Shown in pieces: positions 572 to 18,601 of a DNA stretch of 21,631 nt. Where the stretch lies: positions 105,975 to 127,605 of the forward strand of contig JAVKHQ010000002.1 in the NCBI GenBank assembly GCA_031459875.1, read 5' to 3'. This DNA comes from Candidatus Fervidifonticultor sextus. Its GTDB lineage: Bacteria; Sysuimicrobiota; Sysuimicrobiia; Sysuimicrobiales; Humicultoraceae. The notes beneath the pieces were generated by a model. That model saw only the letters and a program-made list of their open reading frames with translations, was not told the origin of the DNA and did no database searches. A program made the position numbers and the translations under genes. Position 1 is the stretch's first letter; each line of letters starts with the position of its first letter.

Positions 572-1396
572 CTATGGTTTGCGTGCGCTGAAGATGACCG
601 AGCGTGCCGCCTTCGGCTGCTGCGATGGGGGGATCAGACGGCGCATCAGGGCGATGAGCTCTGGGGTAAACAGCGGATACTGCTCGCACTGGTCTACCCC
701 GAAGGGCAGCTCTTCCCCACGCCGGATGTCGACGAACCCGATGTTCTTCAGTTTGCTGACGAAGACACGCTCCGCCAGGGCCCCCGACAGTCAGCCCGCC
801 CACGCCGCCGCGCTGGTCAAGATCTCCGGCGGCAGGTCGTCGTCCACCACGATGTCGGCGATGACCATGCGGCCGCCCGGCTTCAGGATGCGAAAGATCT
901 CGGCAAACGCCCGCGACTTCCGCGGCGAGAGGTTGACCACGCCGTTGCTGATGGCGACGTCTGCGCTGTCCGAAGGCAACGGGATCGCCTCGATCTCGCC
1001 CTGCACCCACTCGACGTTGTTCACCCCGGCCTCGGCGGCGTTGCGCGCGGCGACCTCCAGCATCTCGGGCAGCATGTCGAGGCCGATGGCCCTGCCCGTC
1101 GGCGCCACCACGCGGGCCGCCAGAATCGTGTCAATGCCCCCGCCGCAGCCCAGGTCGATGACGACCTCGCCGGGCCGCAGAGCGGCGGCACGGACGGGGT
1201 TGCCGACGCCCAGCGCCTGCTCGATGGCCCCCCGCGGCAGGACCGCGAGCTGGTCGGGATCGTACAGCCGCTCGGCGACCGTGCTCTTCGCGCCGACCAC
1301 CTCCCGGTAGGCTCGCCGGACGATCTCTTTGATGGCGTCCTGACCGAGCAGGTCCTCACCGGCCGGCGCCGGGGGATGTCCCCTGGCGTGGCTCAT
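572..1396 (-). CDS. ArsM-like class I SAM-dependent methyltransferase, predicted selenoprotein (Sec at TGA 791..793, residue 202 of 274)
   Basis: SAM motif VIDLGCGGGID and ArsM-like segments ALGVGNPV, ISNGVVNLSP, RILKPGG. The frame continues past the TGA for 72 codons (LSGALAERVFVSKLKNIGFVDI...SVIFSARKP) to TAG 572..574. The TGA sits at the ArsM W-x-G-C-x-x-G-A cysteine. ATGA overlap with the anti-sigma stop. Confidence 0.85.
756..778 (-). promoter_or_regulatory. Putative bacterial SECIS element of the methyltransferase
   Basis: Transcript reads UGA-N12-CUGGCGGAG-CGUGU-CUUCGUCAG: 9-bp stem (two G-U pairs) and a 5-nt loop with GU at positions 2-3. The loop starts 21 nt after the UGA. Confidence 0.7.
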
Positions 1397-1650
1397 CCTC
1401 GCTCACCCCTCCCTTCCCGCTCGCCCAACCGGGCCAGCAGGGCTTCCAATCTGACCTGGGCCTCGGGCGCGATCTCCCTGGTCGCCCCCGAGCGCTTCAG
1501 CCGCTCCCTGAGCTGCCGGGCGAACTCCAGCTCCCCGCAGCAGTGCCGGCACAGGCCCAGGTGCTCCTCGAGTTCGTCCTCCTGCACCCGGCCGATGTTC
1601 CGGTCAAGATAGGCCCACAGCCGGGCGACGGCTTCTTTGCAGGTGATCAC
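1393..1650 (-). CDS. Zinc-binding anti-sigma factor (zf-HC2/ZAS), soluble, 85 aa
   Basis: MITCKEAVARLWAYLD...EEHLGLCRHCC contains an N-terminal Cys plus the HxxxCxxC ZAS motif. GTG start overlaps the sigma stop (GTGA), with GGAGG upstream. The track's 219-aa version has a spurious N-terminal extension. Confidence 0.88.
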   Translation of the reverse strand: MITCKEAVARLWAYLDRNIGRVQEDELEEHLGLCRHCCGELEFARQLRERLKRSGATREIAPEAQVRLEALLARLGEREGRGERG

Positions 1651-2255
1651 ACGCCCGCCTCCTGGTGCGACATGAGCAGCCGGTGGCGAACCGCGTAGTC
1701 CCAGATCTCCCGCTCCATCTGGCGGCGACCTCGGGACAGCCAGGTCAGGACCGTGCCCAGCGGCTTTCGCGTGATCCCCGCGATCTCCCGCGCCTTGAAC
1801 CCGTACACGTAGGCGAGGATCAGGGTGATCCGGTACGACGGGTGTAGCCGCTGGAAGACCTCGATGATCCTCGCGTCGTCGAAGAGGTCGAGGAAGTCCA
1901 GGTGCACGCGATCCGAGTAGGGGAACGGGTCTTCCTCGACGATTTTGTCGAAGAGATCGAAGGGCTCGTCGACCGGCAGGTCGTCCGGATCCTTGCCGCG
2001 CAGGGCGCGCACGCGGTCGTAGTAGGCATTGGTGAGCACGCGCGTCAGCCACAGCCGAGGTCGCTCGCGGTTGCGCAGCCGCGGGAAGCCGCGGAATGCG
2101 CGCAGCAGCGTATCCTGCACCAGGTCCTCCGCCTCGGCGCGGCTTCCAGACAGGCGCACCGCCAGCGCATAGAGGTACGCCAGATGCGGTCGGACGACAT
2201 CTTCAAACTTGACCTCTGGAACAGCCGCTGGACCCCCCACCAGCCTGCCTCGCAC
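1647..2255 (-). CDS. ECF (sigma-70 group 4) RNA polymerase sigma factor
   Basis: Region 2 (AEDLVQDTLLRAFR, WLTRVLTNAYYD) and region 4 (GFKAREIAGITRKPLGTVLTWLSRGRR). Start is GTG 2255 or in-frame GTG 2240. Confidence 0.92.
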   Translation of the reverse strand: MRGRLVGGPAAVPEVKFEDVVRPHLAYLYALAVRLSGSRAEAEDLVQDTLLRAFRGFPRLRNRERPRLWLTRVLTNAYYDRVRALRGKDPDDLPVDEPFDLFDKIVEEDPFPYSDRVHLDFLDLFDDARIIEVFQRLHPSYRITLILAYVYGFKAREIAGITRKPLGTVLTWLSRGRRQMEREIWDYAVRHRLLMSHQEAGV

Positions 2256-2276
2256 GGGTCTGACATCTACTAGAAT

Positions 2277-2303
2277 GACGCATCAAGGGCGTCGATTTAT
2301 TGC
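2277..2303 (-). promoter_or_regulatory. Putative ECF-sigma (autoregulatory) promoter GCAATAA-N16-CGTC
   Basis: Minus strand GCAATAA-atcgacgcccttgatg-CGTC just upstream of the sigma gene. The same boxes and spacing recur at 18471..18497. Confidence 0.65.
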
Positions 2304-2359
2304 CTGTGGAGGGTGCGACCAGGCCGCGCCGAGCATGAGCCCACGACCCCCGGCGATGA

Positions 2360-2578
2360 AGTCGAGACCTGCCGGCGTCAGCAGACTGCCAGGGCTTCTA
2401 CGAGGAGTTCGTGGGGCGCACCCACATCCACCACTACGCCACGAAACCCGACGTGCACGTGGTAGGCGCGGCGGCGGCTACGTGCCGTTACTCCCTCACC
2501 CATGTCATCCACATAACCCGTTTACAGGAGGCGGGGCGGGACGCGCGGGTATTCGCCCCCCTGAAATGGGCCCGGTAG
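2360..2578 (+). pseudogene. Start-less fragment resembling the C-terminal half of a DUF4440/SnoaL (NTF2-like) protein
   Basis: Frame between TGA 2357 and TAG 2576 reads ...DCQGFYEEFVGRTHIHHYATKPDVHVVGAAAATCRYSLTHVIHITRLQEAGRDARVFAPLKWAR. Resemblance judged from memory only. Confidence 0.35.
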
Positions 2579-2616
2579 GCCATCCGGCGTATGAGCATGC
2601 CTGCGCAACGAAGTCA

Positions 2617-3396
2617 TTATCCTTCCGCAATCGGAAGCTGCCAAAGATCTAGGGCCAGGTCCACAGGTCCGTGAAACGCCTGCAATGCTTCGTCTTGGAT
2701 CGTCTTGGCGGGTATCACACGCTCTGACGGAAGGTGTGTTAGAACTAGCCGTTTAACCCCGGCTCGCTCCGCTACTGCACCGGCTTCCTCTCCGGTGGAG
2801 TGCGGCATGATCCGAGCCTGCGCCTGATGGGCCCGGTCCCACGTCGCCTCATGCACCAAGAGGTCGGCACCTGCTGCTGCCGTAACGACCGACTCCGCTG
2901 GACTGGTATCCCCCGTAATAACGATCACCGCGTGTCGGAGTCTAACTCGGTATCCGACACTGCCAGAGATATGCTCCACCGGAAAAACCTCCACTGTCAC
3001 CCCCGCCAGCGGGTTGCACTCCTCGCCAGTTCGGAGTCCGACAAAGGCGAAGCCGCCCCGATGTCCTGAAAGATGACACATGCGGCCAAGCGCCGCAACT
3101 GTCTCGTCGCTGCCAAACGTAGTCAGACGCGTCAAGACCTCAGGACAACGGAGTCGAAACCAGATCAGCAGCGGGAAGAGTCCACCAACGTGGTCCCAGT
3201 GCCGGTGGGTAATAAAAATAGCCCTCAGGTCAACAGGCCGTAGCCCGGCACGAAGCACCTGCCGCAACGTCTCCAGGCCGCTCCCAGCATCGAACAACAC
3301 AAATGGCCCATCCTCGTGGACCAGCGCCAGCGCTGATTGACAACGTTCTTCGTTGTCTGCAGCTCCTGTTCCAAGGAAGACAAAACCAAAGTTCAC
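2617..3396 (-). CDS. MBL-fold metallo-hydrolase, RNase Z/arylsulfatase-like
   Basis: FLGTGA, LFDAGSG, THRHWDH metal motif, ITGDT, LLVHEAT, LVLTH. GTGA overlap with the tctA stop. Confidence 0.88.
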   Translation of the reverse strand: MNFGFVFLGTGAADNEERCQSALALVHEDGPFVLFDAGSGLETLRQVLRAGLRPVDLRAIFITHRHWDHVGGLFPLLIWFRLRCPEVLTRLTTFGSDETVAALGRMCHLSGHRGGFAFVGLRTGEECNPLAGVTVEVFPVEHISGSVGYRVRLRHAVIVITGDTSPAESVVTAAAGADLLVHEATWDRAHQAQARIMPHSTGEEAGAVAERAGVKRLVLTHLPSERVIPAKTIQDEALQAFHGPVDLALDLWQLPIAEG

Positions 3397-4901
3397 TTGT
3401 GGAGCGCTCCGGATCCTCTTGTGGCACGCACACGCCGCCAGATTACGGATGCTACAATGCCAAGCACCATAGCCAGCAGCAATCCTCCGCTGATCGGCCT
3501 TTGAAGGAAGACCAACGGATCGCCCCTGCTCATGTACAAACTCTGCCGAAACGTTCGCTCGAGCATTGGGCCCAGCACAAGGGCAAGGATCAGCGGCGCC
3601 ACGTCAAAGTCGAGCTTTTTCAGAATGTAGCCAAGGATGCCCATGGCGAGCAAAACGAGCAGATCGAGTACACTGTTGTTTACGCTAAAAGTGCCTACCA
3701 GCATAAAGACCAGAACGAGCACAAGAAGCATGGGCTGAGGTATCCGGAGGAGGCTCACCCAAAAACCCACCAGCGGAAGGTTCAGGATGAGGAGGGCCGC
3801 ATTGCCAACGTACATCGACGCCACTAAGCCCCAAAACACCTCGGGACGTTCCTGCATGAGAAGCGGCCCTGGCTGCACGCCGTGGATCATCAAGGCGGAA
3901 AGCAGCATTGCCACTGCCGGAGCAAAGGGCACTCCCAAAGCCATTAGCGGGATCATGGCCCCGGTGGTGGCCGCGTTGTTGGCCGCTTCGGGCCCCGCCA
4001 CGCCTTCAATGGCACCCCGGCCGAGCTCATCCGGCCGTTTGGCGAGCCGTCGCTCCAGGTTGTAGGAGGCGAAGGAGGCGATGACCACAGCAGGGCCGGG
4101 GACAAGGCCGACCGGAAAACCCACCGCCGCCCCCCTGAGAATTGCAGGCAGCGCTCGACGCCATTCGGTGCCGGTAGGAAGCAGATCCCGGAGCCGAACC
4201 CCCTCTACCTTGGGGAGTCCCCCCATTCGCTCGGCGACTAGCAGAACTTCGGCCATGCCGAAGAGGCCCATGGCTACTGGAACCAACTCGATTCCCTGCG
4301 CTAGGTTCAACCTGCCGAAGGTATACCGCCTCACTCCGGAGATCGGTTCCATACCCACGGTACCGAGCGCGAGGCCAAAGGCCAGAACCAGCAGCCCCTT
4401 CCACACGGAGCCGCCAGAGACGCGGGACAGCACGAACAGCCCTACAAGAGCCAGGACGAAATACTCCGGCGGTCCAAAGGCTAATGCGAAATTGGCCAGG
4501 ACCGGCGTAAACAACATGAGCCCGACAACACCGAGAGTGCCGGCGACGAACGAGCCAACAGCCGCCACCGCCAATGCAGCGCCTGCCCGTCCTCTTTTCG
4601 CCATCTCGTACCCATCCAGCGCGGTCACAACCGAGGCGGTCTCTCCCGGGACGTTCATCAGAATGGATGTCGTAGAACCACCGTACATACTCCCATAATA
4701 GATTGCCGCCAGCATGACGAGCGCGGTCTCCGGCCTCAGTCCCAGCGTAGCCGGCAAGAGTAACGCCATAGCCCCGATGGGACCTATCCCTGGCAGCACC
4801 CCCACGAGCGTCCCTATTGTCGCTCCGGTTAGAGCCGCTAGAAGATTCTCCCACGCAAGGGCGATTGAGAAACCATACAGCAGTTCATTGACGGAATTCA
4901 T
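3393..4901 (-). CDS. tctA: Tripartite tricarboxylate transporter large permease TctA
   Basis: GTLVGVLPGIG, YYGSMYGGSTTSILMNVPGE, GPEAANNA, HGVQPGPLL signatures. Start moved to ATG 4901 (MNSVNELLYG). Confidence 0.93.
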   Translation of the reverse strand: MNSVNELLYGFSIALAWENLLAALTGATIGTLVGVLPGIGPIGAMALLLPATLGLRPETALVMLAAIYYGSMYGGSTTSILMNVPGETASVVTALDGYEMAKRGRAGAALAVAAVGSFVAGTLGVVGLMLFTPVLANFALAFGPPEYFVLALVGLFVLSRVSGGSVWKGLLVLAFGLALGTVGMEPISGVRRYTFGRLNLAQGIELVPVAMGLFGMAEVLLVAERMGGLPKVEGVRLRDLLPTGTEWRRALPAILRGAAVGFPVGLVPGPAVVIASFASYNLERRLAKRPDELGRGAIEGVAGPEAANNAATTGAMIPLMALGVPFAPAVAMLLSALMIHGVQPGPLLMQERPEVFWGLVASMYVGNAALLILNLPLVGFWVSLLRIPQPMLLVLVLVFMLVGTFSVNNSVLDLLVLLAMGILGYILKKLDFDVAPLILALVLGPMLERTFRQSLYMSRGDPLVFLQRPISGGLLLAMVLGIVASVIWRRVRATRGSGALHK

Positions 4902-5051
4902 GCAAGTCGATCCAACCCGCAATGATCCGGAACCTGTCAACACGGTCCGACTGGAGACCCGGGCAGCGAATCCTCTGCCCACCGAACCTCCGGCCGGTTG
5001 ATATCGGGGTAGGATTGTCCTCGGGGCAACGACGCAGCCCGTTCGATGCCA

Positions 5052-6014
5052 TCATCGTAATTTCAGCTTTCTGACCATGTCGCCAAAGAACGTGTAGTCT
5101 CGCTCCAGTTGTCTCTTCAGGTCGGACGGCCCCATATAGTCAATGACATAACTGTTGTCCTCGGCAAATTTCCTGAAGGCCTCGGTCTCGACGGCTCTCT
5201 TGAGGGCGTCGTGGAGGATCTGCACCACCCGATCCGGAGTGGCTTTAGGGACAATCACAAAGTGATAGACGCCTGCAGAAATGTCGTACCCCAGTTCGGG
5301 GAAGGTCGGAACGCCTGGAAACAGCGGGCTCCGCTTTGCGGAAAAAATTGCGAGCGGCCGTACCCGGCCCGCCCGCACATGGGGGATGACCTCAACTGGT
5401 AGCCCTACAACGGCCTCGATATGCCCCCCCAGTAGGGCCGAAATGTACTCGCCAGCGCCGGCAAATGGCACGTGGGTCAGGTTGACACCGGCCTTTTCCT
5501 TAAGGGCCTCAAGGTCTATGTGCGGAATCGTGCCTACGCCTGCGCTGCCGACGCGTACCGCGCCAGGGCTAGCCCGTGCCTGCTCCAGCACGTCTGCCAG
5601 GGTCCGCCAGCGCGCGTCAGCGCGCACGCAGAAGACCACGGCATGGCCGCCGATCTTGATCACCGTCCGGTAGTCCTCAGGAGTCCTGTAGGGCAAATCG
5701 GTCAAATGAGGCTGAACTGTCATGACAGCCACTGCGGTCATTCCGATTGTGTAGCCATCGGGTTTTGCCAACACGACTTCCGCGGCCCCTATCGTTCCAG
5801 CCCCTCCCGGCCGATTGACCACATAGACTGGGAAGAATGGCCTCGCAGCCTCAACCAGCGCCCGCGCGACCAAGTCGATGGCCTGACCTGCGGGCCAGCC
5901 CACAATCATTGCTACTGGCTTGATCGGGTACGATGGACCCGGAGCCCCAGGAGCGGCGGAGGCCAGCCATACCGTGACGGCAAGGGCTATCATGATATGA
6001 GCGATGCGCATCAT
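5052..6014 (-). CDS. tctC: Tripartite tricarboxylate transporter substrate-binding protein (Bug/TctC family)
   Basis: Signal peptide, YPIKPVAMIVGWPAG, VVNRPGGAGTIG, KPDGYT, HVPFAGAG, PGVPTFPELG. AGGAGG RBS before ATG 6014. Confidence 0.92.
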   Translation of the reverse strand: MMRIAHIMIALAVTVWLASAAPGAPGPSYPIKPVAMIVGWPAGQAIDLVARALVEAARPFFPVYVVNRPGGAGTIGAAEVVLAKPDGYTIGMTAVAVMTVQPHLTDLPYRTPEDYRTVIKIGGHAVVFCVRADARWRTLADVLEQARASPGAVRVGSAGVGTIPHIDLEALKEKAGVNLTHVPFAGAGEYISALLGGHIEAVVGLPVEVIPHVRAGRVRPLAIFSAKRSPLFPGVPTFPELGYDISAGVYHFVIVPKATPDRVVQILHDALKRAVETEAFRKFAEDNSYVIDYMGPSDLKRQLERDYTFFGDMVRKLKLR

Positions 6015-6086
6015 GGTGGTTCCTCCTTTCCAACTCTTGACCATAGCTCCCGAACGCACGCCACCTCTGCGATTCGTGCCGACGAG

Positions 6087-6539
6087 TCAACGAAACAAGA
6101 TTCCCAACGGAAGCGGAACCCCGAGCAAAATGGCGAACAAATAGTGAGAACCTAACGCCACCAGGAGGCTGATCGCAACTTTCAACAACCGGGAGGGCAG
6201 ACCCATCACTTGGAGGATGACGAGTGTGACCAGGGCCGCAGCCAGCGGATGACCCGCGTAGGGAAGCAGAGCGATGTAGCCAAGGGTGGCTCCAACGACC
6301 GCCGTTACCCGCCAGCGACTCCTCTCCTCCGGCCACTCGATGGATCGCCACCGTCGATCACGTGTTGCTTCCAGGCCCACACCGAACGCGCTGAGCACCA
6401 TCAGGCCCCCGACGAGCAACGGATAGAGGCCAGGCCCGGGTTGGGCCAGGGTCCCGCGAGGATACCGGTGGGCCTCAACGAGGTACAGCATCCCTGCCAA
6501 CGAGCTAAGGACCACTATGACGAAGAGGTACTTCCTCAC
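6087..6539 (-). CDS. tctB: Tripartite tricarboxylate transporter small permease TctB
   Basis: QPGPGLYPLL motif, several TM helices, C-terminal LLGVPLPLG. Probable start GTG 6539 (the track extends it to 6638). Confidence 0.85.
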   Translation of the reverse strand: MRKYLFVIVVLSSLAGMLYLVEAHRYPRGTLAQPGPGLYPLLVGGLMVLSAFGVGLEATRDRRWRSIEWPEERSRWRVTAVVGATLGYIALLPYAGHPLAAALVTLVILQVMGLPSRLLKVAISLLVALGSHYLFAILLGVPLPLGILFR

Positions 6540-6627
6540 TGTCTGCTCTGCCAGGGACGAAAGAGCCTTTCCCAGATCGCAAGCGCATCGAGCACGCCAG
6601 CTTGCAGTCCCCTGAGTGCTAGAAGTC

Positions 6628-8574
6628 TCATAGCTCAAGAATCTCTTTCATGACGTGCCCTTCCGCATCGCGCGGCGTCGGGATGTCCAGCAGGCGCGCC
6701 AGCGTCGGGGCCAGGTCGATGAGGTTGACGGGCCGGGTCGGCCAGAGGTGTTTGACCCCGGGGCCGGCCAGGATCACGGCCGCGTGCATCTCCGGCACCG
6801 TGGGCAGGGTCAGGTGGGCTCCGGTGAAGTTCTGCAGCAGCCGCGAGGCCTCGAACCTCTCCATGTTGACGATCACCCGTTCGGTACCGTCCCGGTACCT
6901 GACGGCGGCGGGGTAGACGTATGGGTTCGCCATGTACCCGGGCTTCCAGGCGTAGAGCACATCACCGATTCGGTCATAGCCACGCCCTTCATAGACGCCC
7001 AGAAGGCGCGCGTCTTGTTTGCGCACGGCCGCAGCCACCACGAGTTCTCCCGTTACGGGGTCGCGCAGGCGCATCAGCGCGTCGATGACCTCGTCCTGGA
7101 CGCGGGCATAGTCCGCGGGGTCGACGCATCCCTGCGGGTCGCGCCCCTTGAGGTTGATGAAGATATGGGCGTGTCCCGGTTCCAAGGGATAACACTTCGT
7201 ACGTGACCAGTCGATGGCCATCTCGCCCGTCTGCGGGTCGAGGGTGAACGTCATGAGCCCGGCCTCGGCCAGGCAGTATTTGAGGAACGGGAAGAAGTCC
7301 AGGTGGGTGAAGCCGTGGTCCGACACGGCCAGCACCACGGTCCGCTCCAGGTCGACACTGCGGAGAATCTCGGCCACCCCCAGGTCCACCTCCCGGTAGA
7401 CGTCACGGATGGTGCTTAGCCAGCGGTCGGCCGTGGCAGGGTCGTAGGTCCGGGACCGCGGTTCGACGCCTCCGTAGAGCACATGCTCGATGTGGTCGAT
7501 GGTGCCGACCCACGAGAATGCCAGATCCCACGCCTGGGTGCGCAGCACGTGGGCGGTGGCCCGCATCCACCAGGCGTTGTGGGCACTCAGCTGGGCTCTG
7601 AAGGCGTCCAGGGGAATCCAGCCGTCCATGAACGCCCAGGGATCGTCCACCTCCATGTACGGCCCGGCCACCGCCTCCAGCTCCGGGGTCAGTTCGGCAG
7701 GGATGGTGTAAGGTTCTGCCGTGTTGATGGCGGTCACGTAGAGCCGCAGGTCGCGGGCGTCGGGGCTGAGGGCGACCAGCTGGAACCGGAACCGCCCTCG
7801 GCGCGTCCCGGTAGCGGTCTCGAACGTCTCCGTGATCCAGTCGCTCAGTTCGCCGACACGCAGTACGGCGACGGCGGCCCGGGCGTCACGCGTGGGGGCG
7901 ACGACGACCCGATCGTACCCGCTCTGCCCGGTGGCTACGATGGCCACGTGGTAGCGGACGCCGCGGGCATAGGTCGGCGGGACGTCGATGACGATTTCCA
8001 GCGGCGGCAGCGGTCCAGGAGCAAGGCCCGACCAGCCGGAGGCCGGCTCGGGGGTGACCACGACCATCCGCCCCGGCACCTGGTTGCACGGGAACCGCTC
8101 CGTGGCAAAGAAGGCGCTGCTGGCGATGTCGAACAGCGGCATGTAGAAGAAACGGAAGGGCGGATTGAGCGCGGCCGCCACCTGGACGCCGCGCTCGAGG
8201 CCCATGGGCCACGTCACCGGCCAGTTGATCAGGGCGGGGCGCCGGCCGGCCCGCATGCCCGCCTCCCAGAGCGTCTCCGCCATCTGAATCCGGCGGTCGA
8301 ACGACGTATGCCAGCGGTCCAGCGGCTCGCCCGGCAGGTGCACCATCAGGCTGGGGACGCCGGTACTGCCGGGCCCGGCGCCGGTGACGATCGCAGACCA
8401 CGCGGCGGCGGTCAGCGGCGGGAACGTGGTCAACGCACGGGCGAACACGCCGCGGCGCATCAACGCCGCCAGGGCCGGCAATACGCCCTCGTCGGCGAAC
8501 CGGCGCACGAGGTCCGGAAGCGCGGCGTCCAGTCCCAGGACCAGGAGCCTGTCAGGCCTGGTGGGCATGGGCAC
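6628..8574 (-). CDS. Alkaline phosphatase superfamily, nucleotide pyrophosphatase/type I phosphodiesterase-like protein
   Basis: LVLGLDAA, FPPLTAAAWSAIVTG (Thr nucleophile position), DHIEH, VSDHGF, INLKGRDPQG, DLAPTLARLL. No signal peptide seen. Start is 8574 or 8568. Confidence 0.88.
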   Translation of the reverse strand: MPMPTRPDRLLVLGLDAALPDLVRRFADEGVLPALAALMRRGVFARALTTFPPLTAAAWSAIVTGAGPGSTGVPSLMVHLPGEPLDRWHTSFDRRIQMAETLWEAGMRAGRRPALINWPVTWPMGLERGVQVAAALNPPFRFFYMPLFDIASSAFFATERFPCNQVPGRMVVVTPEPASGWSGLAPGPLPPLEIVIDVPPTYARGVRYHVAIVATGQSGYDRVVVAPTRDARAAVAVLRVGELSDWITETFETATGTRRGRFRFQLVALSPDARDLRLYVTAINTAEPYTIPAELTPELEAVAGPYMEVDDPWAFMDGWIPLDAFRAQLSAHNAWWMRATAHVLRTQAWDLAFSWVGTIDHIEHVLYGGVEPRSRTYDPATADRWLSTIRDVYREVDLGVAEILRSVDLERTVVLAVSDHGFTHLDFFPFLKYCLAEAGLMTFTLDPQTGEMAIDWSRTKCYPLEPGHAHIFINLKGRDPQGCVDPADYARVQDEVIDALMRLRDPVTGELVVAAAVRKQDARLLGVYEGRGYDRIGDVLYAWKPGYMANPYVYPAAVRYRDGTERVIVNMERFEASRLLQNFTGAHLTLPTVPEMHAAVILAGPGVKHLWPTRPVNLIDLAPTLARLLDIPTPRDAEGHVMKEILEL

Positions 8575-8577
8575 CTC

Positions 8578-10394: not shown

Positions 10395-10448
10395 ATCGTG
10401 ATCACAGGGCGTATCTTGGCCGATCGTTACCTTCCGCCGGCCCACACG

Positions 10449-11840: not shown

Positions 11841-12967
11841 CGCTCTCCCCCTCCCTCATCGTGGATCTTCACCTGGGGATACATCGTGCGTTCGATCCGG
11901 GCTACGAGCGTCGGCACGACGACCAGCTGAACGACGATGCCCGGCACGCCGGTCGCCAGCGCCGCCTGCAGGTAGGCCACCGCCGACATCTTGAGACCCA
12001 GCGCCGGGCCTACGGTGGCGGCGGCGACACCCAAGGCGAGCCGTCCGGCCGCCAGCGTGGGTACGAGCCAGACGTACTCCCGGGCCAGCGAAAGGTGCAG
12101 TGGCACCTGAGTCCGGGCGTGGCCCGGCCGCGTGCCGTATGCACGTGCCCAACCACGCACGACTCCCGCCACCAGACCGTACGTGGCCAGCTCGACCATC
12201 ATCAGCGGCGCCACCGGCGGTATCACCGGCGGCATGCCCGTGAGCAGATGCGACAGCGCGGGGGCGACGGCCCCGACGAGGCAGCCGACCCGGGCACCGC
12301 CCAGCGCTCCCATGAGGAGCACCGGCAGGTGCATGGGGAGGAGCGCCGGGCCCAGGCCGACCATGTGGACGACCAGGGGGAGCGTCACGGCCATGGCTAG
12401 GCCGACGCCGGCAGCCGCCAGCGCGTGCACCGCATGCCGCGCATCCGCAGAGGTGCCAAGGATGCGCGTGGGCCGGCGCTCGGCACGTCCGGCGTCCGGC
12501 CGGCGTGCAGCCAGCCGGGCACCCGTGGCACGCACTGCAGCGACCACGCCGTCGAGGTCGGCACCCCCCGCCCGGGCGGCCTCCGCGGCGGCCTCGAACG
12601 GACAGGGGCCGTCGCCACGGCAGTTGAGGATCCTGGGCACCTGGCGCTGGCTGGTGAAGGCCACGCCCCGCGCGCGAGCCTCGCGGGCCGCCGCCTCGCT
12701 GGCCACCTCGGCGAAGATCATGCGCACACCGGCCCATGCCGCCACCGCCACGGCCGCCGCGCCGGCGATCCGATCCGCCAGCGCGGCACCGGCGATCCCT
12801 CGCGCGCGCAGGTCGTCCGCCGCCTGCACCAGGGCATCCAGGCCGGGGTCGGCCGACTCGGCCAGCACCAGTCCCTCGCGGACGATGACGAAGCCCAGCG
12901 CTCGGTCCCGCAGTCGCGCGGCGGCTATGGCCAGGTCCCGGGGCGCCCCGTCAGGGAGAGGACCCAT
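11804..12967 (-). CDS. DUF1893 (TM1506-like) domain fused to an ECF transporter S-component
   Basis: N-half ADRIAGAAA...VASEAA...VPRILNCRGDGPCPFE is the DUF1893 pattern. C-half LPMHLPVLLMG...APALSHLLTGMPP...MMVELATYGLVAG...PGIVVQLVVVP is the ECF S-component pattern. Confidence 0.72.
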   Translation of the reverse strand: MGPLPDGAPRDLAIAAARLRDRALGFVIVREGLVLAESADPGLDALVQAADDLRARGIAGAALADRIAGAAAVAVAAWAGVRMIFAEVASEAAAREARARGVAFTSQRQVPRILNCRGDGPCPFEAAAEAARAGGADLDGVVAAVRATGARLAARRPDAGRAERRPTRILGTSADARHAVHALAAAGVGLAMAVTLPLVVHMVGLGPALLPMHLPVLLMGALGGARVGCLVGAVAPALSHLLTGMPPVIPPVAPLMMVELATYGLVAGVVRGWARAYGTRPGHARTQVPLHLSLAREYVWLVPTLAAGRLALGVAAATVGPALGLKMSAVAYLQAALATGVPGIVVQLVVVPTLVARIERTMYPQVKIHDEGGGERCTGSRDVNCSA

Positions 12968-13919
12968 CGCCGCGCTCCGTCAGCCCTTCGTACACCCGGA
13001 CCAGCGCCGCGCTGTCCAGGTCGCCAAAGCCCCGGGCCCGGGCCAGGTGGTTGAGGAGCTGGACCAGCGTCGTCAGCACCGGCGCGCCCCCTGCCGTTCG
13101 GGCCATGCCCACGGCCAGGTCGGTGTCCTTGCAGAGCAGGTCGATGGAAAAGACAGGCGCGAAATCGCCGCGCGTCATCCTGTCGCCTGCCTCGCGGAAC
13201 AGTCCCGAGACGGTGGCGGCGCCGCTGGACACGATGGTCTCGTACAGCAAACCGGGCGCGATGCCGACGCGCGGTGCCAGGGCCATCACCTCTGCCGTGG
13301 CAGCGTTGATGATGGCAAACATCATCTGATTGAGCAGCTTCACGATGTGCCCGCTGCCGGGAGGGCCGACGTGGATGACCCGGGCTGCGAACGCCTTCAG
13401 CACCGGCCGCACCCGGTCGAGGACCGCCTGCTCGCCGCCCACCGGCACCGTCCATCGTCCGGCCGTGGCCGGACGGCCCAAAATGGGCGCGTCGAGAAAG
13501 CCGATCTCGACCGCGGCCGCGCGTGCGGCCAGCAGCCGCGTCGCGGCAGGGTCGCTGGTGCTGGTGTCGACGATGACCTGCGGCGGAGAGTTCAGAGCGG
13601 TCAAGCGGTCTGCCACCTGCCGGACAGCCTCCGGGCCAGGCAGCGACAGGATGGCCGCGACGGCACGAGCATTCAGGGCGTCCAGGTCCGGCACCGTGGT
13701 CGCTCCTGCTGCCGCTACCGCCGCCAGCGCCTGGGCGTCGGGGTCGTGAGCCATCACGTGATACCCGCCCGACAGCAGTGCCGCCGCGATGATCCGCCCC
13801 ATGGTGCCGCACCCGATGATGGCCAGCGGCGCCGGAGGCAGGATGAGGGCGGCCGACGACGTCGGGTGTGCGTCGCGGGTGGGTACGCGACCTGGGAGGC
13901 GCGGCGGCCCTGGTGTCAT
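12951..13919 (-). CDS. NAD(P)-dependent beta-hydroxyacid dehydrogenase (3-hydroxyisobutyrate dehydrogenase/tartronate semialdehyde reductase family)
   Basis: IIGCGTMG, VDTSTSDP, FLDAPILG, GSGHIVKLLNQ (catalytic Lys), FSIDLLCKD. ATG 13919 overlaps the larA-like stop (ATGA). The track's 828-aa ORF has a spurious N-terminus. Confidence 0.92.
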   Translation of the reverse strand: MTPGPPRLPGRVPTRDAHPTSSAALILPPAPLAIIGCGTMGRIIAAALLSGGYHVMAHDPDAQALAAVAAAGATTVPDLDALNARAVAAILSLPGPEAVRQVADRLTALNSPPQVIVDTSTSDPAATRLLAARAAAVEIGFLDAPILGRPATAGRWTVPVGGEQAVLDRVRPVLKAFAARVIHVGPPGSGHIVKLLNQMMFAIINAATAEVMALAPRVGIAPGLLYETIVSSGAATVSGLFREAGDRMTRGDFAPVFSIDLLCKDTDLAVGMARTAGGAPVLTTLVQLLNHLARARGFGDLDSAALVRVYEGLTERGDGSSP

Positions 13920-15364
13920 GACCGGGAGGCGGGCACGCCGGCAGTCTGACGCTCGGCGTGCAGGTGCACCTGGACCCGGGAGAGGCGTGGCACCACCAGC
14001 AGGCGCGGGCGTGGTCCGACGTGCCGCGCGGCGTGCCGCAGGGCGTCGTCGAACGTGGCGGCCGGGATGCACCCCATGCCGCGGGCGTGGGCGGGCGCAC
14101 GGGCGCCGACGATGTACACGGCCCGCGCGTACCGGTCGGCGAGTCCACCCATGTACGCCATGGAGAAGCCGTGGAAGGGATGATAGGCGTACCCGTAGCG
14201 GTACCGGCGGATCCACTCGGGCCGGGTGCACACCTCGTCTTCGTAGCGGGCCAGCGCGTCGACTGTCTGGCAGCGCTGTAACAGCCGGTAGATCTCCCGG
14301 TACGCCGGGAACCACTCGTCGTTGAACCAGCCGTCGCACACACACGCCGCGATGACGACGGGGAACGGCCGCAGCGCGCCGAAGGCACGGGCCAGGGAGG
14401 CGCCGATGGCCTGCTTGAAGAGCAGCGGGTTGGATCCCATGCCCGGCCCGTAGTGGAACGTCCGGGGAATCCCCAGCACCAGTACATCGGCGGGCTCGCC
14501 CGGCACCGTGACCTCGGTGCGGTGTCCGGCCAGGGGCCAGGTGGCCTGCTCCACCTCGGCCAGCCGTCCTGCGAATACCGCCAGCTGCTGGTTCTGGCCG
14601 TTGAGCACGGCGTCGACGGCGAAAAACGGCTGTTTCATGGCTCGCTCTATCGCCTCGCCGATGCGGCGCAGCTGGTGGCGGAAGCGGCTCCCGGTGGTGA
14701 TGGGGACGAAATCCGGCCGGAACATGGTGCCGGGCGCGTGGTGACACCGGATGGATCGCCATCCCACCAGACCGGTGCAGGGCATCTTGTACCCGCCACT
14801 GTAGCCACCGTAGGGGTTGCCCAGCGTGTGTCCCAGCACGATGGTCAGGTCGGCCTCCAGCACCGCGCGGTTCACTTCCACGACGTCGCCGTCGGCCGTC
14901 TCGCCCAGCCGCACCATGCCGTCCGGATCCTCGGCGTCGTGGTTGGTGAGCCGCCGGCCGCGAAAACGTGCGACGACCTCGGAGCCCAGGTAGCTTTCGA
15001 ACTCCTCCGGGAGGTTCTTTCGGTGCAGGCCGACCGCGCAGAGCAGCGTGATGTCGTCCTCGCGCACGCCGGCGTCGCGCAGGCGCTCCAGCAGCAGCGG
15101 GATGGTAACCCGCCGGTGCGCTGTGGCGTGGGCACCACCCTTCACGCGGTCGGGGAAGGCAATCACCACCCTGGCGCCCGGGCCGACCAGGGCCGGCAGG
15201 GGTGGCAGCCCCAGGGGCTGCGCCAAGGCCCGCGCGGTCAACGCGACGGGGTCCTCGGCGGGGACGGGGTCCCGGTAGAGCGTGCCGGGCTCCACCACGA
15301 CCGCGTCGTCGGGGACGTCGACCTCGAGAATGCCGTCGCCGTACTCGAGGGCTACCCGCGGCAT
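13916..15364 (-). CDS. LarA-family (lactate racemase domain) nickel-pincer-nucleotide-dependent racemase/epimerase
   Basis: LEYGDG start, VVIAFPDRVK, AVGLHRK, NHDAED, VEVNRAVLEADL, GYSGGYK, SIRCHH. GGGGGAAG RBS. Confidence 0.85.
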   Translation of the reverse strand: MPRVALEYGDGILEVDVPDDAVVVEPGTLYRDPVPAEDPVALTARALAQPLGLPPLPALVGPGARVVIAFPDRVKGGAHATAHRRVTIPLLLERLRDAGVREDDITLLCAVGLHRKNLPEEFESYLGSEVVARFRGRRLTNHDAEDPDGMVRLGETADGDVVEVNRAVLEADLTIVLGHTLGNPYGGYSGGYKMPCTGLVGWRSIRCHHAPGTMFRPDFVPITTGSRFRHQLRRIGEAIERAMKQPFFAVDAVLNGQNQQLAVFAGRLAEVEQATWPLAGHRTEVTVPGEPADVLVLGIPRTFHYGPGMGSNPLLFKQAIGASLARAFGALRPFPVVIAACVCDGWFNDEWFPAYREIYRLLQRCQTVDALARYEDEVCTRPEWIRRYRYGYAYHPFHGFSMAYMGGLADRYARAVYIVGARAPAHARGMGCIPAATFDDALRHAARHVGPRPRLLVVPRLSRVQVHLHAERQTAGVPASRS

Positions 15365-15444
15365 CGGCTTCCCCCGTACAATTCCTCATCGGCGGTACGC
15401 CAGGCGTCGCCTGGACCGTCGACATGGTGTTCGACACAGGTGTT

Positions 15445-15468
15445 GTCTATTCCTCTATACAAATAGAC
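15445..15468. promoter_or_regulatory. Inverted repeat, candidate GntR operator in the divergent larA-like/gntR promoter region
   Basis: GTCTATT-cctctataca-AATAGAC in an AT-rich patch; contains GT-N-TA and TA-N-AC half sites reminiscent of HutC-subfamily operators. Confidence 0.5.
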
Positions 15469-15524
15469 TTATTGAGGGGAGCAGATCGGTCAGGACCCGG
15501 CGCGACGAGGGGAGGCGGCATCAG

Positions 15525-16295
15525 GTGAGGCTCGATCGGGACAGCGGCATTCCCCTCTACGTGCAGATCCGAGAGTTGATCCGCCAGGGCGTGGCCCAGG
15601 GCGCCTGGCGGGTGGGCGAGACGCTGCCTCCGGAGGACGAGTTGAGTGCGGCCTTCGGCGTGAGCCGCGGCACGGTACGGCAGGCTTTGGGACACCTCGC
15701 GCGGGAGGGCCTGCTGGTCCGTCACCGCCGGTCGGGGACCCGCATCGTGCGCGCGCCGGCCAACCCCGGGCTGCTATTCATCTCCCCCTACAGGGCCATT
15801 CGGGCGGCCGGGAAGCACCCCCGGGTACAGATCCTGGCACTGAAGAAGCAGCGCGCGCCGCGGCGCGTGGTGGCGGCGTGGGAAGCCGACGGGCGGGGGC
15901 CGGCCAGGCGTCTTGCCGTGCATTTCGACCGGGTGTTTTGGGCTGACGGAGAGCCCATTGCCCGGGGGAGCTCGTGGGCGCCAGCCCCGCGCTTCGACCG
16001 GCTGCTGGCCATGGATCTGACCACGCGAGCCTTCCTCGACGTGCTGGCCAGCGAGTTCGGCGTGGTCATCACCCGCATCGACGAGCGCATGGAGTTGACG
16101 GCGATGTCGGCCGAAAACGCCCGCCTGCTCCGCACCCGGCGTGGCGCGCCGTGTCTGGCGGTCACCCTCTGTCAGTGGTCTCGTGCAGAGCCTGTGGAGT
16201 ATGCGGAGTTCTGGCTCGACCCGGCCAAGTCGCGCTACCTGCTCACCGGCCTGATGGGCGTCGAAGCCGACCTGGCCAAGGGTCGGGGGTTATAG
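15525..16295 (+). CDS. GntR family transcriptional regulator (HutC/UTRA subfamily)
   Basis: IPLYVQIRE, LPPEDELSAAFGVSRGTVRQAL wHTH plus a UTRA-like C-terminus. GGAGG RBS before GTG 15525. Confidence 0.92.
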   Translation: MRLDRDSGIPLYVQIRELIRQGVAQGAWRVGETLPPEDELSAAFGVSRGTVRQALGHLAREGLLVRHRRSGTRIVRAPANPGLLFISPYRAIRAAGKHPRVQILALKKQRAPRRVVAAWEADGRGPARRLAVHFDRVFWADGEPIARGSSWAPAPRFDRLLAMDLTTRAFLDVLASEFGVVITRIDERMELTAMSAENARLLRTRRGAPCLAVTLCQWSRAEPVEYAEFWLDPAKSRYLLTGLMGVEADLAKGRGL

Positions 16296-16490
16296 CCGGC
16301 GGCTCCCGCAGCCACGGGGCGGCGCGGCTCTTCTCGGGCGGCAAAAAGTTGCTGAGGCAGATGGAGGGCATCGACTGCGGGCGGGACGCGGCCTGCTTCG
16401 TCGGCCACCACCGGCGGCAAGGGGCCGCTATGGCATCCTGGCGCGAGGCGACTGATTCGCTCTCCAGAGTCACTGTGCCGCTCCGGATGT

Positions 16491-16510
16491 GCTGCGGTAT
16501 CGGCCGCAGC
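16491..16510 (-). terminator. GC-rich hairpin just downstream of the DUF2182 stop
   Basis: GCTGCGG-tatcgg-CCGCAGC 7-bp stem about 10 nt after the stop. No U-tract, so function is uncertain. Confidence 0.3.
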
Positions 16511-16519
16511 CTCGCCCGA

Positions 16520-17284
16520 TCAGAGCATGCCTTCCACCTGAAGGAGGATCGCCCAGGCGATCAACGCTGCGCCCGCGGGCCCGGTGAGCCGGCTACCCCA
16601 CGGGAGCGTGCGCTCGGCGGTCATGACGGCGCCCAGCGCCAGCATCCACCCCAGGTGTGCGATGCCCACGGCGAACATGAGCAGCATGAGCGCCCAGCAG
16701 CAGCCGACGCAGAACAGGCCGTGGTGTAGCCCCAGCGCCCACGCGTCGCGACAGGGGTGGACACCCCGCCAGCGGCCCGCCAGGAACGTCAGCGGCGAGC
16801 GGCACTGGCTCAGGCAGCGCTCCTTCAGCGCCGTGAACTGGTAGGCGCCGGCGGCCAGCAGCACCCCGGGCGGGAGGATGGCGGCGAGCCAGGGCAGCCG
16901 CTCGACCAGTTCGTGCACCGCGACGACGTCCACGGCGAACGCCGCCAGACCGAACCCCGCCCAGACGCTCAGGTAGCCTGCGCCCAGCCGCAGCAGCAAC
17001 CGCCGGCGGTCCGGTCGGTGGGCGACCGCGCGGCGGAACAGGTTCACCAGCGGCAGGCTGCCCGGCAGCATCATGGCCACCGTCATCACGGTCCACCCGA
17101 CCACGAATGCTGCCAGCCGGAAGACCGGAGAGAGGGTGCTCGCCTCGGTCTCCCGGTGGCCTAGCCAGCCCGCGTACGGGGAGGAGCCCCACAGCGCCAT
17201 GATGGCCCACGCCGACCCGATCAGGGCCGCAAGCGCCAGCCGGTACCAGCGGGCGTCGTCAGGCGTGCGGAGGGCGCCGATCAT
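16520..17284 (-). CDS. DUF2182 family predicted metal-binding integral membrane protein
   Basis: WTVMTVAMMLP, AGAYQFTALKERCLSQCRSP, GLFCVGCCWALMLLMFAVG are DUF2182 signatures; adjacent to DUF1326. Confidence 0.88.
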   Translation of the reverse strand: MIGALRTPDDARWYRLALAALIGSAWAIMALWGSSPYAGWLGHRETEASTLSPVFRLAAFVVGWTVMTVAMMLPGSLPLVNLFRRAVAHRPDRRRLLLRLGAGYLSVWAGFGLAAFAVDVVAVHELVERLPWLAAILPPGVLLAAGAYQFTALKERCLSQCRSPLTFLAGRWRGVHPCRDAWALGLHHGLFCVGCCWALMLLMFAVGIAHLGWMLALGAVMTAERTLPWGSRLTGPAGAALIAWAILLQVEGML

Positions 17285-17305
17285 GCCGCAGCCGCGAGGC
17301 GGCGG

Positions 17306-17908
17306 TCAGGCGGCGAACTTGAACGGTCCCAGCACCGCGTTGCGCCCACTGTACTCCCATCGGATGCGGTGCTGCGGGACGTCGGCCCGGAACGCGGGCG
17401 CTGTGCCGACGAAGGCCGCAGAGCCGGGGATGGTGGAGAAGACGCTGTCCACGAGCTTCGTGGGGTGGCCCTGGAGGTCCGTCAGGGGCTCCATCTCGCT
17501 GGTCACCGCATCGCCGATCCTGATGTACCCCTTGCCCTCGCGGAAACTGAAGTCAATGGGGGCGTCGTAGACGCCGAGGACCTCACCCACAAGGGGTGCC
17601 AGGTCGGCCAGCGGTCCGCCAAGCTTCCCGGTGTGCGCCGCCAGGATGGCCTCCTTCTGCTGCGGCGTGGCCCTGCTGTCGACGAAGACCACGGCCTTCC
17701 AGTTGCCCTTGAGGACGTTCCCGGGAATCTGCACGACCAGGGCCAGGGTCAGGCCCGCCACGTCGACCCCGTTGATTTGCCCGCGGTCGTAATGGTAGGC
17801 GATGAGCCCGTTGCAGGCCCCGCCGTCGGGATCCTGCCCGACCCAGCAGGGGCACACGGCTGCACATGAGCAGGCTTCCAGCAGCGCGCCTTCCAGCACG
17901 TACCCCAT
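17306..17908 (-). CDS. DUF1326 family Cys-rich protein
   Basis: EACSCAAVCPCW...PDGGAC, IPGNVLKGNW, VDSRATPQQKEA. GGAGGT RBS before ATG 17908. Confidence 0.88.
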   Translation of the reverse strand: MGYVLEGALLEACSCAAVCPCWVGQDPDGGACNGLIAYHYDRGQINGVDVAGLTLALVVQIPGNVLKGNWKAVVFVDSRATPQQKEAILAAHTGKLGGPLADLAPLVGEVLGVYDAPIDFSFREGKGYIRIGDAVTSEMEPLTDLQGHPTKLVDSVFSTIPGSAAFVGTAPAFRADVPQHRIRWEYSGRNAVLGPFKFAA

Positions 17909-18067
17909 AGCCGTCACCTCCCTGGTGGTGTGCGCGTCCCGCGCGCCTAGTGGGCGATCGAGAAGACCAGCTGCACGTTGTCTTCCCGCGCGTCGTTTCC
18001 ATGCGTTGTCCCCTCCTGTCTCCCCGTAGGTCCCAGAGTATTCCCCCTCTGAGACAGACACCGTCCC

Positions 18068-18430
18068 TCAGAACGAGACCACCCGGTCATACTCCGCCAC
18101 CAGCGCTGCGAACTGCCTGGGCGTCATGAACTGGCCATTCTTGCCCTGCAGGTCCTGCTCGGTCACCCCACGGGCGGCCGAACAGCCGCCTCAGACGTAG
18201 ATCGGAATCTTGTACTCGAGGACCTTCGCCATCAGGTCCTTCATAGGCGGCCAGCCTACGGGCACGATGGCGTTGGCCACGACATCCTTCATCACCACCA
18301 CCGCATCGGCCGTCAGGCCGATGGCGGCCTGGTGGCCCGCTTCCACGGCCCCTATGGCCGACAGTAACGGCAGGACCGCCTTCGTGGGGTTCTCGGACCC
18401 GTGGGTCCCATTGAAGAACAATCGGGCCAT
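18068..18430 (-). CDS. DsrE/DsrF-like protein, predicted selenoprotein with UxxC motif (Sec at TGA 18191..18193, residue 80 of 120)
   Basis: THGSENPTKAVLP...GHQAAIGLTADAV N-terminus. The frame continues after the TGA as GGCSAARGVTEQDLQGKNGQFMTPRQFAALVAEYDRVVSF to TGA 18068..18070, completing the DsrE CxxC...RG motif and the usual C-terminal D-x-V-x-x-F ending. Confidence 0.88.
18155..18185 (-). promoter_or_regulatory. Putative bacterial SECIS element of the DsrE-like gene
   Basis: UGA-N5-CUGUUCGG-C-CGCC-CGUGG-GGUG-A-CCGAGCAG: 8-bp lower stem, C/A mismatch, 4-5 bp upper stem, GU-containing apical loop 18-19 nt after the UGA. Confidence 0.68.
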
Positions 18431-18470
18431 CCGCGTCACCCCCTCACCCCATCCTGAATCCATTGTGAGA

Positions 18471-18497
18471 GACGGGGCTGCGGCGCAGACTTATTGC
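18471..18497 (-). promoter_or_regulatory. Putative ECF-sigma promoter GCAATAA-N16-CGTC upstream of the Sec-DsrE operon
   Basis: Minus strand GCAATAA-gtctgcgccgcagccc-CGTC, ending 40 nt before ATG 18430. Same boxes and spacing as 2277..2303. Confidence 0.65.
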
Positions 18498-18601
18498 ACG
18501 AGCGGAGGGCCAGGGTCCGGCCGGCCGGCGGGTCGGGCGGGCGGCCTGTCGGCCCCCGGGAAGCCGCCTGCTCTGCCTCCGGCGGTCAGGGCCTTCTTGA
18601 C

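Follow-up and report, generated by a model that had tools for sequence, protein, structure and literature searches.

The closest described relatives of the system discussed here are SigR-RsrA of Streptomyces and SigH-RshA of Corynebacterium and Mycobacterium, in which an extracytoplasmic function (ECF) sigma factor is encoded together with a small, soluble anti-sigma factor of the HxxxCxxC type directly 3' of it. A locus of this layout is present in a 21,631-nt stretch (hereafter, the window) of the genome of Candidatus Fervidifonticultor sextus, a member of the Sysuimicrobiota (GenBank assembly GCA_031459875.1, contig JAVKHQ010000002.1, positions 105,975 to 127,605). It consists of an ECF sigma factor gene, a zinc-associated anti-sigma (ZAS) gene, and the gene of a selenocysteine-containing methyltransferase, and it is accompanied by a distant selenoprotein operon behind the same promoter motif. 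The two operons are read here, at a probability of about 0.62, as a stress switch that resembles SigR-RsrA and has a very small regulon. The sequence-based parts of this reading are gene content, selenocysteine (Sec) decoding, the uniqueness and conservation of the motif, and gene fusion or neighbourhood in relatives.

The sigma factor matches only Sigma70_r2 and Sigma70_r4_2 in Pfam, apart from a sub-threshold match to PhyR_sigma2. The anti-sigma factor has no hydrophobic segment (maximum 19-residue hydropathy 0.35), and in 45 of 45 sequences, drawn from the two phyla that carry the system, the residues C4, W12, H30, L31, C34, C37, C38, G39, and E40 are invariant and the pattern C-x25-H-x3-C-x2-CC is kept. 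As in RsrA and RshA, an extra N-terminal cysteine stands 26 residues ahead of the histidine; the RsrA residues used for this comparison are C11/H37/C41/C44. Sequence searches of solved structures (PDB) gave nothing useful for the anti-sigma factor, or for the DUF1326 and DsrE proteins of the second operon.

The predicted autoregulatory promoter has the same layout as that of SigH, GCAAT-N19-GTC here against the published GGAAT-N18-19-GTT (PMC10012870), and a similar layout is given for ECF26 and ECF207, namely GGAATAAA ... GTT or GTC (PMC7826278 supplement), a source that describes the promoter motifs of the ECF12 subgroup as not conserved. The locus differs from the SigR/SigH systems in the second base of the -35 element, which is C and not G, in its -10 box, CGTC, in having one or two promoters per genome instead of dozens, and in an invariant third gene for a methyltransferase with the ArsM fold. 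ECF14 (SigE type) likewise combines an ECF sigma factor, a ZAS anti-sigma factor, and a neighbouring methyltransferase, although the latter is described as an O-methyltransferase upstream at -1, whereas the ArsM-fold enzyme lies at +2 and overlaps the anti-sigma stop (PMC7826278 supplement). On the anti-sigma pattern, the best family matches, and the promoter, the switch most resembles SigR-RsrA and SigH-RshA in its working; membership of ECF12 is not claimed because the family scores fall under their cut-offs.

Two operons and one promoter motif

The genome of this stretch (G000) comprises 3,053,559 bases in 67 contigs. The features of the two operons, in window coordinates, are as follows.

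2303..2277, minus strand: predicted promoter P1, GCAATAA (-35) N16 CGTC (-10), 5' of the sigma gene
2255..1647, minus strand: ECF sigma factor; start GTG at 2255, possibly GTG at 2240; Pfam Sigma70_r2 60 bits, Sigma70_r4_2 36.9 bits
1650..1393, minus strand: soluble ZAS anti-sigma factor, 85 aa; Pfam zf-HC2 30.3 bits; C4, H30, C34, C37, C38
1396..572, minus strand: S-adenosylmethionine (SAM) methyltransferase of the ArsM fold, 274 aa, U202 in the motif UxxG; from Pfam, NCBIfam, and structure alignment
793..791, minus strand: in-frame Sec codon TGA of the methyltransferase
757..777, minus strand: selenocysteine insertion sequence (SECIS)-like hairpin of the methyltransferase, 8 bp with loop CGUGU; from a 15-sequence alignment
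546..<1, minus strand: AhpD/CMD-like 'peroxidase-related' gene with one Cys; Pfam CMD; extends past the window start
18497..18471, minus strand: predicted promoter P2, GCAATAA-N16-CGTC, 5' of DsrE
18430..18068, minus strand: DsrE-like selenoprotein, 120 aa, U80 in the motif UGGC; Pfam DsrE PF02635 47.4 bits, cut-off 22.7
18193..18191, minus strand: in-frame Sec codon TGA of DsrE
18155..18185, minus strand: SECIS-like hairpin of DsrE; from a single-sequence fold and a 7-orthologue alignment
17908..17306, minus strand: DUF1326 protein with Cys-rich N-terminus, same family as DmdF; Pfam PF07040 180.3 bits
17284..16520, minus strand: DUF2182/PpoB2 membrane protein, same family as DmdE; Pfam PF09948 202.6 bits

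Operon 1 holds the sigma, anti-sigma, Sec-methyltransferase, and AhpD-like genes, and operon 2, about 16 kb from it, those of Sec-DsrE, DUF1326, and DUF2182; all seven genes are on the minus strand. The sigma stop and anti-sigma start overlap in GTGA, the anti-sigma stop and methyltransferase start in ATGA, and 21 nt separate the DUF1326 and DUF2182 genes. The AhpD-like protein scores 83.9 bits with TIGR01926, over the cut-off of 81.8, and the DUF2182 protein has at least four hydrophobic segments.

The motif GCAATAA-N16-CGTC has two matches in the window, both on the minus strand, and none in 100 shuffles of it; the whole 3.05-Mb genome contains the same two matches and no others, with 0 for the reversed control. 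The end of P1 is 21 nt from the first possible sigma start codon, 41 nt separate P2 from the start codon of DsrE, whose ribosome-binding site is GAGGGGG, and the spacers of both contain TC and CGCC. A preliminary description of this DNA had proposed two co-oriented operons, each behind this motif and each with one in-frame-UGA gene and its SECIS-like hairpin. Both sites, their genes, and their strands are confirmed, the genome-wide count of exactly two sites places both at the operons named there, and the selenoprotein assignments are borne out by the orthologue alignments and Sec machinery described below. A search of the whole genome for further regulon members, allowing one mismatch at spacer 16, returned 5 sites against 7 in the control, which is background.

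Sigma-70-like promoter matches were also noted at 2616-2644 (minus strand), about 310 nt 5' of P1 and on the same strand, and at 18597-18625 (plus strand), divergent from P2 and facing a DUF4143/AAA_14 ATPase gene at 18636-19850. For the DsrE-DUF1326-DUF2182 operon a sigma-70-like promoter was looked for and none was found. Most Sysuimicrobiota sigma promoters conserve GTAG/GTAA 7-11 nt 3' of CGTC (window 2266-2270; L014-L026), as does one actinobacterial promoter (L207), and this element may be the transcription start region. A second regulator acting through inverted repeats in the promoter spacers was considered and rejected, the mean best stem of 3.9 against 3.3 in shuffles not being convincing.

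The module in related genomes

Conservation was followed in 14 Sysuimicrobiota loci with methyltransferase identities of 67% or more, together with four further public loci (18 in total). Among named public records, the closest are Candidatus Fervidifonticultor octavus, with a methyltransferase of 96% identity, and other metagenome-assembled genomes (MAGs) of Candidatus Sysuimicrobiota (CSP1-3). Unpublished genomes (G022, G013, G114, G148, G115, G149, G116, and G109) enter the overall tallies only, namely the methyltransferase UGA rows, a 41-genome motif scan, and the actinobacterial set, besides one background motif match, and no conclusion depends on them. A sigma orthologue is found 5' of the methyltransferase in 14/14 loci and an anti-sigma gene in 13/14, and the four further loci have the same sigma/anti-sigma/methyltransferase arrangement. 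The exception, G003 (L156, G003:C84 250-3615), is a decayed copy of the module in which a truncated sigma gene runs into the methyltransferase, the anti-sigma gene is missing, and AhpD and DsrE persist only as fragments; a transposase gene (rve/HTH) follows it.

The promoter motif is equally persistent. It stands 5' of the sigma gene in exact form in 11 of the 14 loci and as a one-base variant in the other three, while of the four further loci one has an exact copy and three have the variant GCAATAG; a motif or one-base variant is therefore present in 18/18 Sysuimicrobiota loci, amid intergenic flanks that cannot be aligned. The exact motif has 22 sites in 41 related genomes, where the reversed control has 7; of the 22, 11 precede sigma, two precede DsrE (G000, G002), and one precedes an OsmC...DUF1326-DUF2182 series (G036). 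Eight other exact sites (in G013, G019, G015, G031, G038, G032, and twice in G027) have no module gene within 1.5 kb and were set aside, their number being close to the control count of 7.

The genes that follow the trio vary. An AhpD-like gene comes after the methyltransferase in 12/18 loci, in one of them as a fragment. The DUF1326-DUF2182 pair belongs to the sigma cluster in six relatives: behind sigma, anti-sigma, methyltransferase, and AhpD in G025 and G012, behind sigma, anti-sigma, and methyltransferase in G020, G035, and G006, and directly 5' of the sigma gene in G036. G001 and G007 have an OsmC-like gene after AhpD, and OsmC has a motif copy of its own in G036 and L061. Small cupin genes, separate from the methyltransferase, come after it in G030 and G007. 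Between the two same-genus genomes the distant cargo is swapped, with DsrE followed by DUF1326-DUF2182 in G000 and by an OsmC-like gene in G002 (L158, G002:C88), both loci lying 5' of the same LarA-like gene; OsmC was not found in G000, nor DUF1326 in G002, an assembly that is 84% complete.

The tie of DsrE to the motif is far narrower, being seen only in G000 and G002 and in the fragments of G003. Among 17 other DsrE loci examined, the motif is present in one, that of the same-genus G002. P2 has no independent footprint because the only other genome that carries it belongs to the same genus and has near-identical flanks. These facts would also suit a chance match at P2, with the DsrE-DUF1326-DUF2182 operon transcribed independently of this sigma factor, and the reversed control does yield about 0.17 matches per genome (7 in 41). 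Such a coincidence is nevertheless highly improbable: P2 is on the correct strand and within about 100 nt 5' of genes that occur in the sigma cluster of six relatives, for which our own arithmetic from that control rate gives a probability of the order of 1e-5; the search for a sigma-70-like promoter of the operon came up empty; and the TC and CGCC shared by both spacers also speak against chance. Because the motif is conserved, the DUF1326-DUF2182 pair shares the sigma cluster in six relatives, and extra motif copies precede cargo genes, it is very likely that the regulon includes the distant operon and that the sigma factor controls its own gene through the motif.

The same module is found in an actinobacterial class, the one containing a Nitriliruptoraceae MAG (L104). 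Full-length methyltransferase orthologues (46-61% identity) lie directly behind sigma and anti-sigma genes in 30/30 loci examined, and in 12 of these an OsmC gene precedes sigma on the same strand. The motif takes the form GCAAT-N17-CGTC, its spacer one base shorter than that of Sysuimicrobiota, and stands 5' of osmC or sigma in 12/13 extended loci, in L205 before both. A derived pattern has 7 matches in three more complete genomes, against 1 for the control; G199 and G102 each have one site ahead of osmC/sigma and another directly before the gene of the second methyltransferase. The third match in G199 (L215, G199:C1:4822848-4822874) precedes the gene of a small protein (about 88 aa) whose N-terminus resembles a signal peptide, and this gene may also belong to the regulon. 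Of the 30 loci, 17 have a second ArsM-like paralogue. Such a paralogue lies 3' of the module in L207 (G097:C148), L196 (G199), and L206/L209 (G102); it, too, lacks the other ArsM cysteines and has Cys at the same position, or TGA in G097.

A quick maximum-likelihood tree unites the sigma-linked methyltransferases from the two phyla in a single group, with a Shimodaira-Hasegawa-like approximate likelihood ratio (SH-aLRT) of 92, and places the unlinked Sec paralogues, the second methyltransferases, and canonical ArsM outside it. A sister group of Sec-containing ArsM-like methyltransferases with 48-53% identity (L027-L032, in G029, G027, G038, G014, G011, and G015) has no sigma or anti-sigma neighbours; the 21 neighbouring open reading frames (ORFs) in four of the six include no Sigma70 family. 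As judged from gene neighbourhoods, the conserved core is the sigma factor, the anti-sigma factor, and a single-Sec/Cys methyltransferase of the ArsM fold, and AhpD, OsmC, cupin, DUF1326/DUF2182, and DsrE are lineage-specific, exchangeable cargo, mostly thiol/selenol redox proteins.

The DNA between the operons encodes, by Pfam, an MBL-fold protein, TctABC, a phosphodiesterase, ABC transporter parts, a dehydrogenase, a LarA-like protein, and a GntR regulator, and the Pfam scan gave these genes no evident connection to either operon. G+C content is 0.59-0.63 at window positions 2001-7000, the region of the MBL-fold gene and TctCBA, against about 0.69 elsewhere, and in a same-genus record (L059) the phosphodiesterase gene directly abuts the sigma promoter; the low G+C and the L059 arrangement make the MBL-fold/TctCBA block look like an insertion in G000.

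Selenoproteins, methyltransferase, and cargo

Both in-frame UGAs are genuine selenocysteine codons. The genome encodes the Sec machinery, SelA, SelB, SelD, and tRNA-Sec, and its selD gene (G000:C7:11684-12604, L160) has one in-frame TGA, so that SelD is probably itself a Sec-containing protein. The methyltransferase TGA is kept in 14 close orthologue loci (that of the window included) and in 7 more distant rows, and the DsrE TGA in 13 homologue rows within the phylum. In the actinobacterial orthologues the same residue of the methyltransferase is Sec (TGA) in 17/30 loci and Cys in 13/30, and the alignment of the methyltransferase to solved ArsM structures continues through the UGA position. 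The hairpin of DsrE folds from its single sequence at -31.3 kcal/mol (z -1.93), and over 7 orthologues it has 11 pairs, 3 of them with compensatory changes. The methyltransferase SECIS folded as a single sequence is no better than shuffles (z 0.35), and the question is settled by the alignment-based fold: across 15 orthologues an 8-bp hairpin begins 13 nt 3' of the UGA, with 0 pairs broken, 1 compensatory, and 2 with one-sided changes.

Neither protein type is new as a selenoprotein, since an 'arsenite methyltransferase' family with the motif UxxG, as here, is already listed (PMC13188914), and so is a 'DsrE-like' family with the motif UxxC (PMC13188914, PMC2398784). The DsrE protein of the window shares the Pfam DsrE domain and the motif (UGGC) of the latter and differs by its predicted ECF-type promoter, the family entries in those sources giving no regulatory context. 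NCBIfam further defines a fused ArsM/AhpD selenoprotein family (NF041537), which parallels the adjacent methyltransferase and AhpD-like genes of operon 1.

The methyltransferase has an intact SAM motif and a class I, ArsM-type fold, and scores 239.5 bits with NF008823, under the cut-off of 263. A structural model of a Cys-form orthologue (predicted local distance difference test, pLDDT, 91.2) has 5evj, 4fr0, and 6cx6 as its top Foldseek matches, all of them ArsM, with template-modelling (TM) scores of 0.67-0.71. Compared with the ArsM proteins CmArsM and CrArsM, it shares the fold, the SAM motif, and the position of the GECLAGAL cysteine, which is Sec here and the sole one of the four ArsM cysteines retained; the other three positions hold Val, Gly, or no Cys. 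The N-terminal pair is thus not matched (GCGNP reads LGVGNP, and no Cys occurs before residue 83), and neither is the As(III)-binding pair (ISNCV reads ISNGV, and the GECL Cys is Sec). The conserved cysteines of CmArsM are C44, C72, C174, and C224; mutants C72A and C224A appear in the PDB titles of the structure matches. On contig C40 the genome has a separate, canonical ArsM with all four cysteines.

Because three of the four ArsM cysteines are absent, the methyltransferase is probably not an arsenite methyltransferase despite its fold, and sulfide, a thiol, selenide, or some other small soft nucleophile is favoured over arsenite as the candidate substrate. An analogy for this is provided by the H2S/methanethiol methyltransferases MddM1 and MddM2, which are described as SAM-dependent, induced by oxidative stress, and able to raise tolerance (PMC12904073). 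The likeness to MddM1/MddM2/MddH is one of function, that is, SAM-dependent small-molecule methyltransferases induced by oxidative stress; going by their published description, they differ in being of the UbiG/UbiE type, with 204-210 aa and no Sec reported there (PMC12904073).

The cargo proteins bear on the chemistry involved. DUF1326 and DUF2182 are the two Pfam families of DmdF and DmdE in Roseobacters, and of PpoB2 in Marinomonas, with adjacent genes there as here. Purified DmdF is reported to consume H2O2, a peroxidase activity linked to protection from oxidative stress, and the DmdE/DmdF copies of actinomycetes and other non-Rhodobacterales are reported as phylogenetically distinct (PMC12992908). 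As described, the Roseobacter genes stand with dmdA/acuI under DmdR, whereas those of the window have a predicted ECF-type promoter and lie near selenoprotein genes; the families of dmdR, dmdA, and acuI are not among the 26 window ORFs scanned with Pfam, no genome-wide search having been made. In the actinobacterial class, many Cys-form methyltransferases are fused to a C-terminal Cupin_2 domain: 9 of 13 are 388-415 aa long, and 5 of 7 scanned match Cupin_2. The HxH...E metal motif is present in the fusions of L167, L169, L173, L174, L177, and L186, and the stand-alone cupins of G030 and G007 have no detectable sequence similarity to the fused Cupin_2 (E 0.27-0.38).

It is conceivable that the same genes form a linear sulfur/selenium route, in which Sec-DsrE would carry S(0) or Se to the Sec-methyltransferase with AhpD, DUF1326, and DUF2182 as helpers. 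The preliminary description had suggested such roles by way of example, with DsrE as a carrier of S or Se and the methyltransferase as a methylating or detoxifying enzyme. Sec at active-site positions of both DsrE and the methyltransferase would suit such a route, as would DsrE-like genes 3' of the module in two actinobacterial loci, L189 and L206 (32-34% identity), and methylation of H2S and methanethiol is a described detoxification route (PMC12904073). The route is quite unlikely, however, given how few genomes tie DsrE to the motif and the cargo of G002, where, in the 84% complete assembly, DsrE is followed by OsmC and no DUF1326 was found. Most module genomes have no DsrE beside the module, so DsrE cannot be obligatory. 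The recurrent cargo (AhpD-like, OsmC-like, and DUF1326 proteins) points to peroxide or thiol chemistry and not to one linear sulfur/selenium pathway.

A predicted stress switch and its significance

In the SigR-RsrA-like reading, the soluble zinc-binding anti-sigma factor would keep the ECF sigma factor inactive until its zinc-bound cysteines are oxidised or otherwise modified, upon which the sigma factor would be released and direct RNA polymerase to GCAATAA-N16-CGTC, the sequence it is taken to read. The copy at P1 would drive the operon of the sigma factor itself and, lying before that operon, implies positive autoregulation, and the copy at P2 would drive the Sec-DsrE/DUF1326/DUF2182 operon. 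The inducing signal would be thiol-reactive stress (a disulfide, peroxide, electrophile, or reactive sulfur or selenium species), and the substrate of the methyltransferase would be one of the small soft nucleophiles named above.

The preliminary description had gone further in proposing that one sigma factor co-activates both operons. By comparative genomics, autoregulation and the inclusion of DUF1326-DUF2182 are supported, and the DsrE link holds only within the genus. The gene co-occurrence on which that proposal depended divides in the same way: the sigma, anti-sigma, and methyltransferase trio recurs and DUF1326-DUF2182 joins the sigma cluster of six relatives, with DsrE as the part that does not extend beyond the same genus.

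Several points weigh against the reading as a thiol-stress switch of the SigR-RsrA type. The best NCBIfam match of the sigma factor, SigH_actino TIGR02947, scores 90.4 bits, under the cut-off of 251.55, and the best family match of the anti-sigma factor, RsrA TIGR03988, scores 40.8 bits, under the cut-off of 62.5. Several ZAS anti-sigma factors are insensitive to oxidants, and the ZAS motif alone is no proof of redox sensing. The closest structures of the methyltransferase are arsenite methyltransferases, and the Pfam description of DUF2182 (PF09948, now PpoB2) as a copper chaperone fits a metal signal equally well. P2 is conserved solely in one same-genus genome with near-identical flanks, and in the 17 other DsrE loci examined no module gene lies within 1.5 kb. 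The sequencing runs that match the stretch are four DNA runs from one hot-spring metagenome study, with no RNA run listed.

Some of these points would be equally served by a metal or metalloid switch with the same regulon, in which the zinc of the anti-sigma factor is driven out by a thiophilic ion such as arsenite, antimonite, or Cu(I), and the output is metalloid methylation by the ArsM-like enzyme together with the handling of copper or metal by DUF2182/DUF1326. The arsenite methyltransferases closest to the methyltransferase in sequence and structure, the copper chaperone named for PF09948, and the presence of the stretch in hot-spring DNA all agree with it. This switch is considered unlikely, though not negligibly so, because three of the four ArsM cysteines are missing from the methyltransferase (Val, Gly, and no N-terminal Cys), the genome already has its canonical four-Cys ArsM on contig C40, the commonest cargo (OsmC-like and AhpD-like) consists of peroxide-type proteins, and DUF1326/DUF2182 were not found adjoining the module in the 30 actinobacterial loci examined.

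A more speculative extension of the SigR-RsrA-like reading treats the trio as a three-part sensor, with the methyltransferase as primary sensor or as modifier of the ZAS anti-sigma factor. The selenol might pass an oxidation equivalent to the zinc-bound cysteines in a relay of the Orp1-Yap1 type, or the enzyme might S-methylate a zinc thiolate, as in Ada. The methyltransferase is translationally coupled to the anti-sigma factor and in many actinobacteria fused to a metal-binding cupin, and the anti-sigma factor ChrR senses through a cupin-type domain. The idea is given a low probability.

No published link was found between an ECF sigma factor or ZAS anti-sigma factor and this methyltransferase, DUF1326/DUF2182, or selenoprotein genes. 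The paper on the ECF reclassification and the covered part of its supplement, which is not conclusive for the whole, mention no DUF1326, DUF2182, DsrE, GCAAT, or ArsM-like gene at +2 (PMC7826278), section 9 of a selenoprotein review contains no sigma-linked operon, nor does the word 'sigma' occur in the text available, and the main text of the phylum description mentions neither selenium nor sigma factors. Among the papers searched, none was found to pair 'arsenite methyltransferase' with anti-sigma, ECF, and OsmC.

The predicted switch offers a first regulatory context for orphan families, namely the single-Sec/Cys ArsM-like methyltransferases, DUF1326/DUF2182 (DmdF/DmdE, PpoB2), and the DsrE-like selenoproteins, and assigning the three families to a single predicted stress switch whose promoter is precisely defined makes their function testable. 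A subfamily that scores as 'arsenite methyltransferase' and lacks the arsenic-binding cysteines matters for arsM-based surveys of arsenic methylation. With no more than one or two targets per genome, the sigma factor is a candidate for use in synthetic biology as an orthogonal regulatory part. The occurrence of the module in two phyla, with Sec and Cys forms side by side, provides a natural system for asking what selenocysteine adds, and the three-part sensor, if true, would add a new means of gating ECF sigma factors and give selenocysteine a regulatory role.

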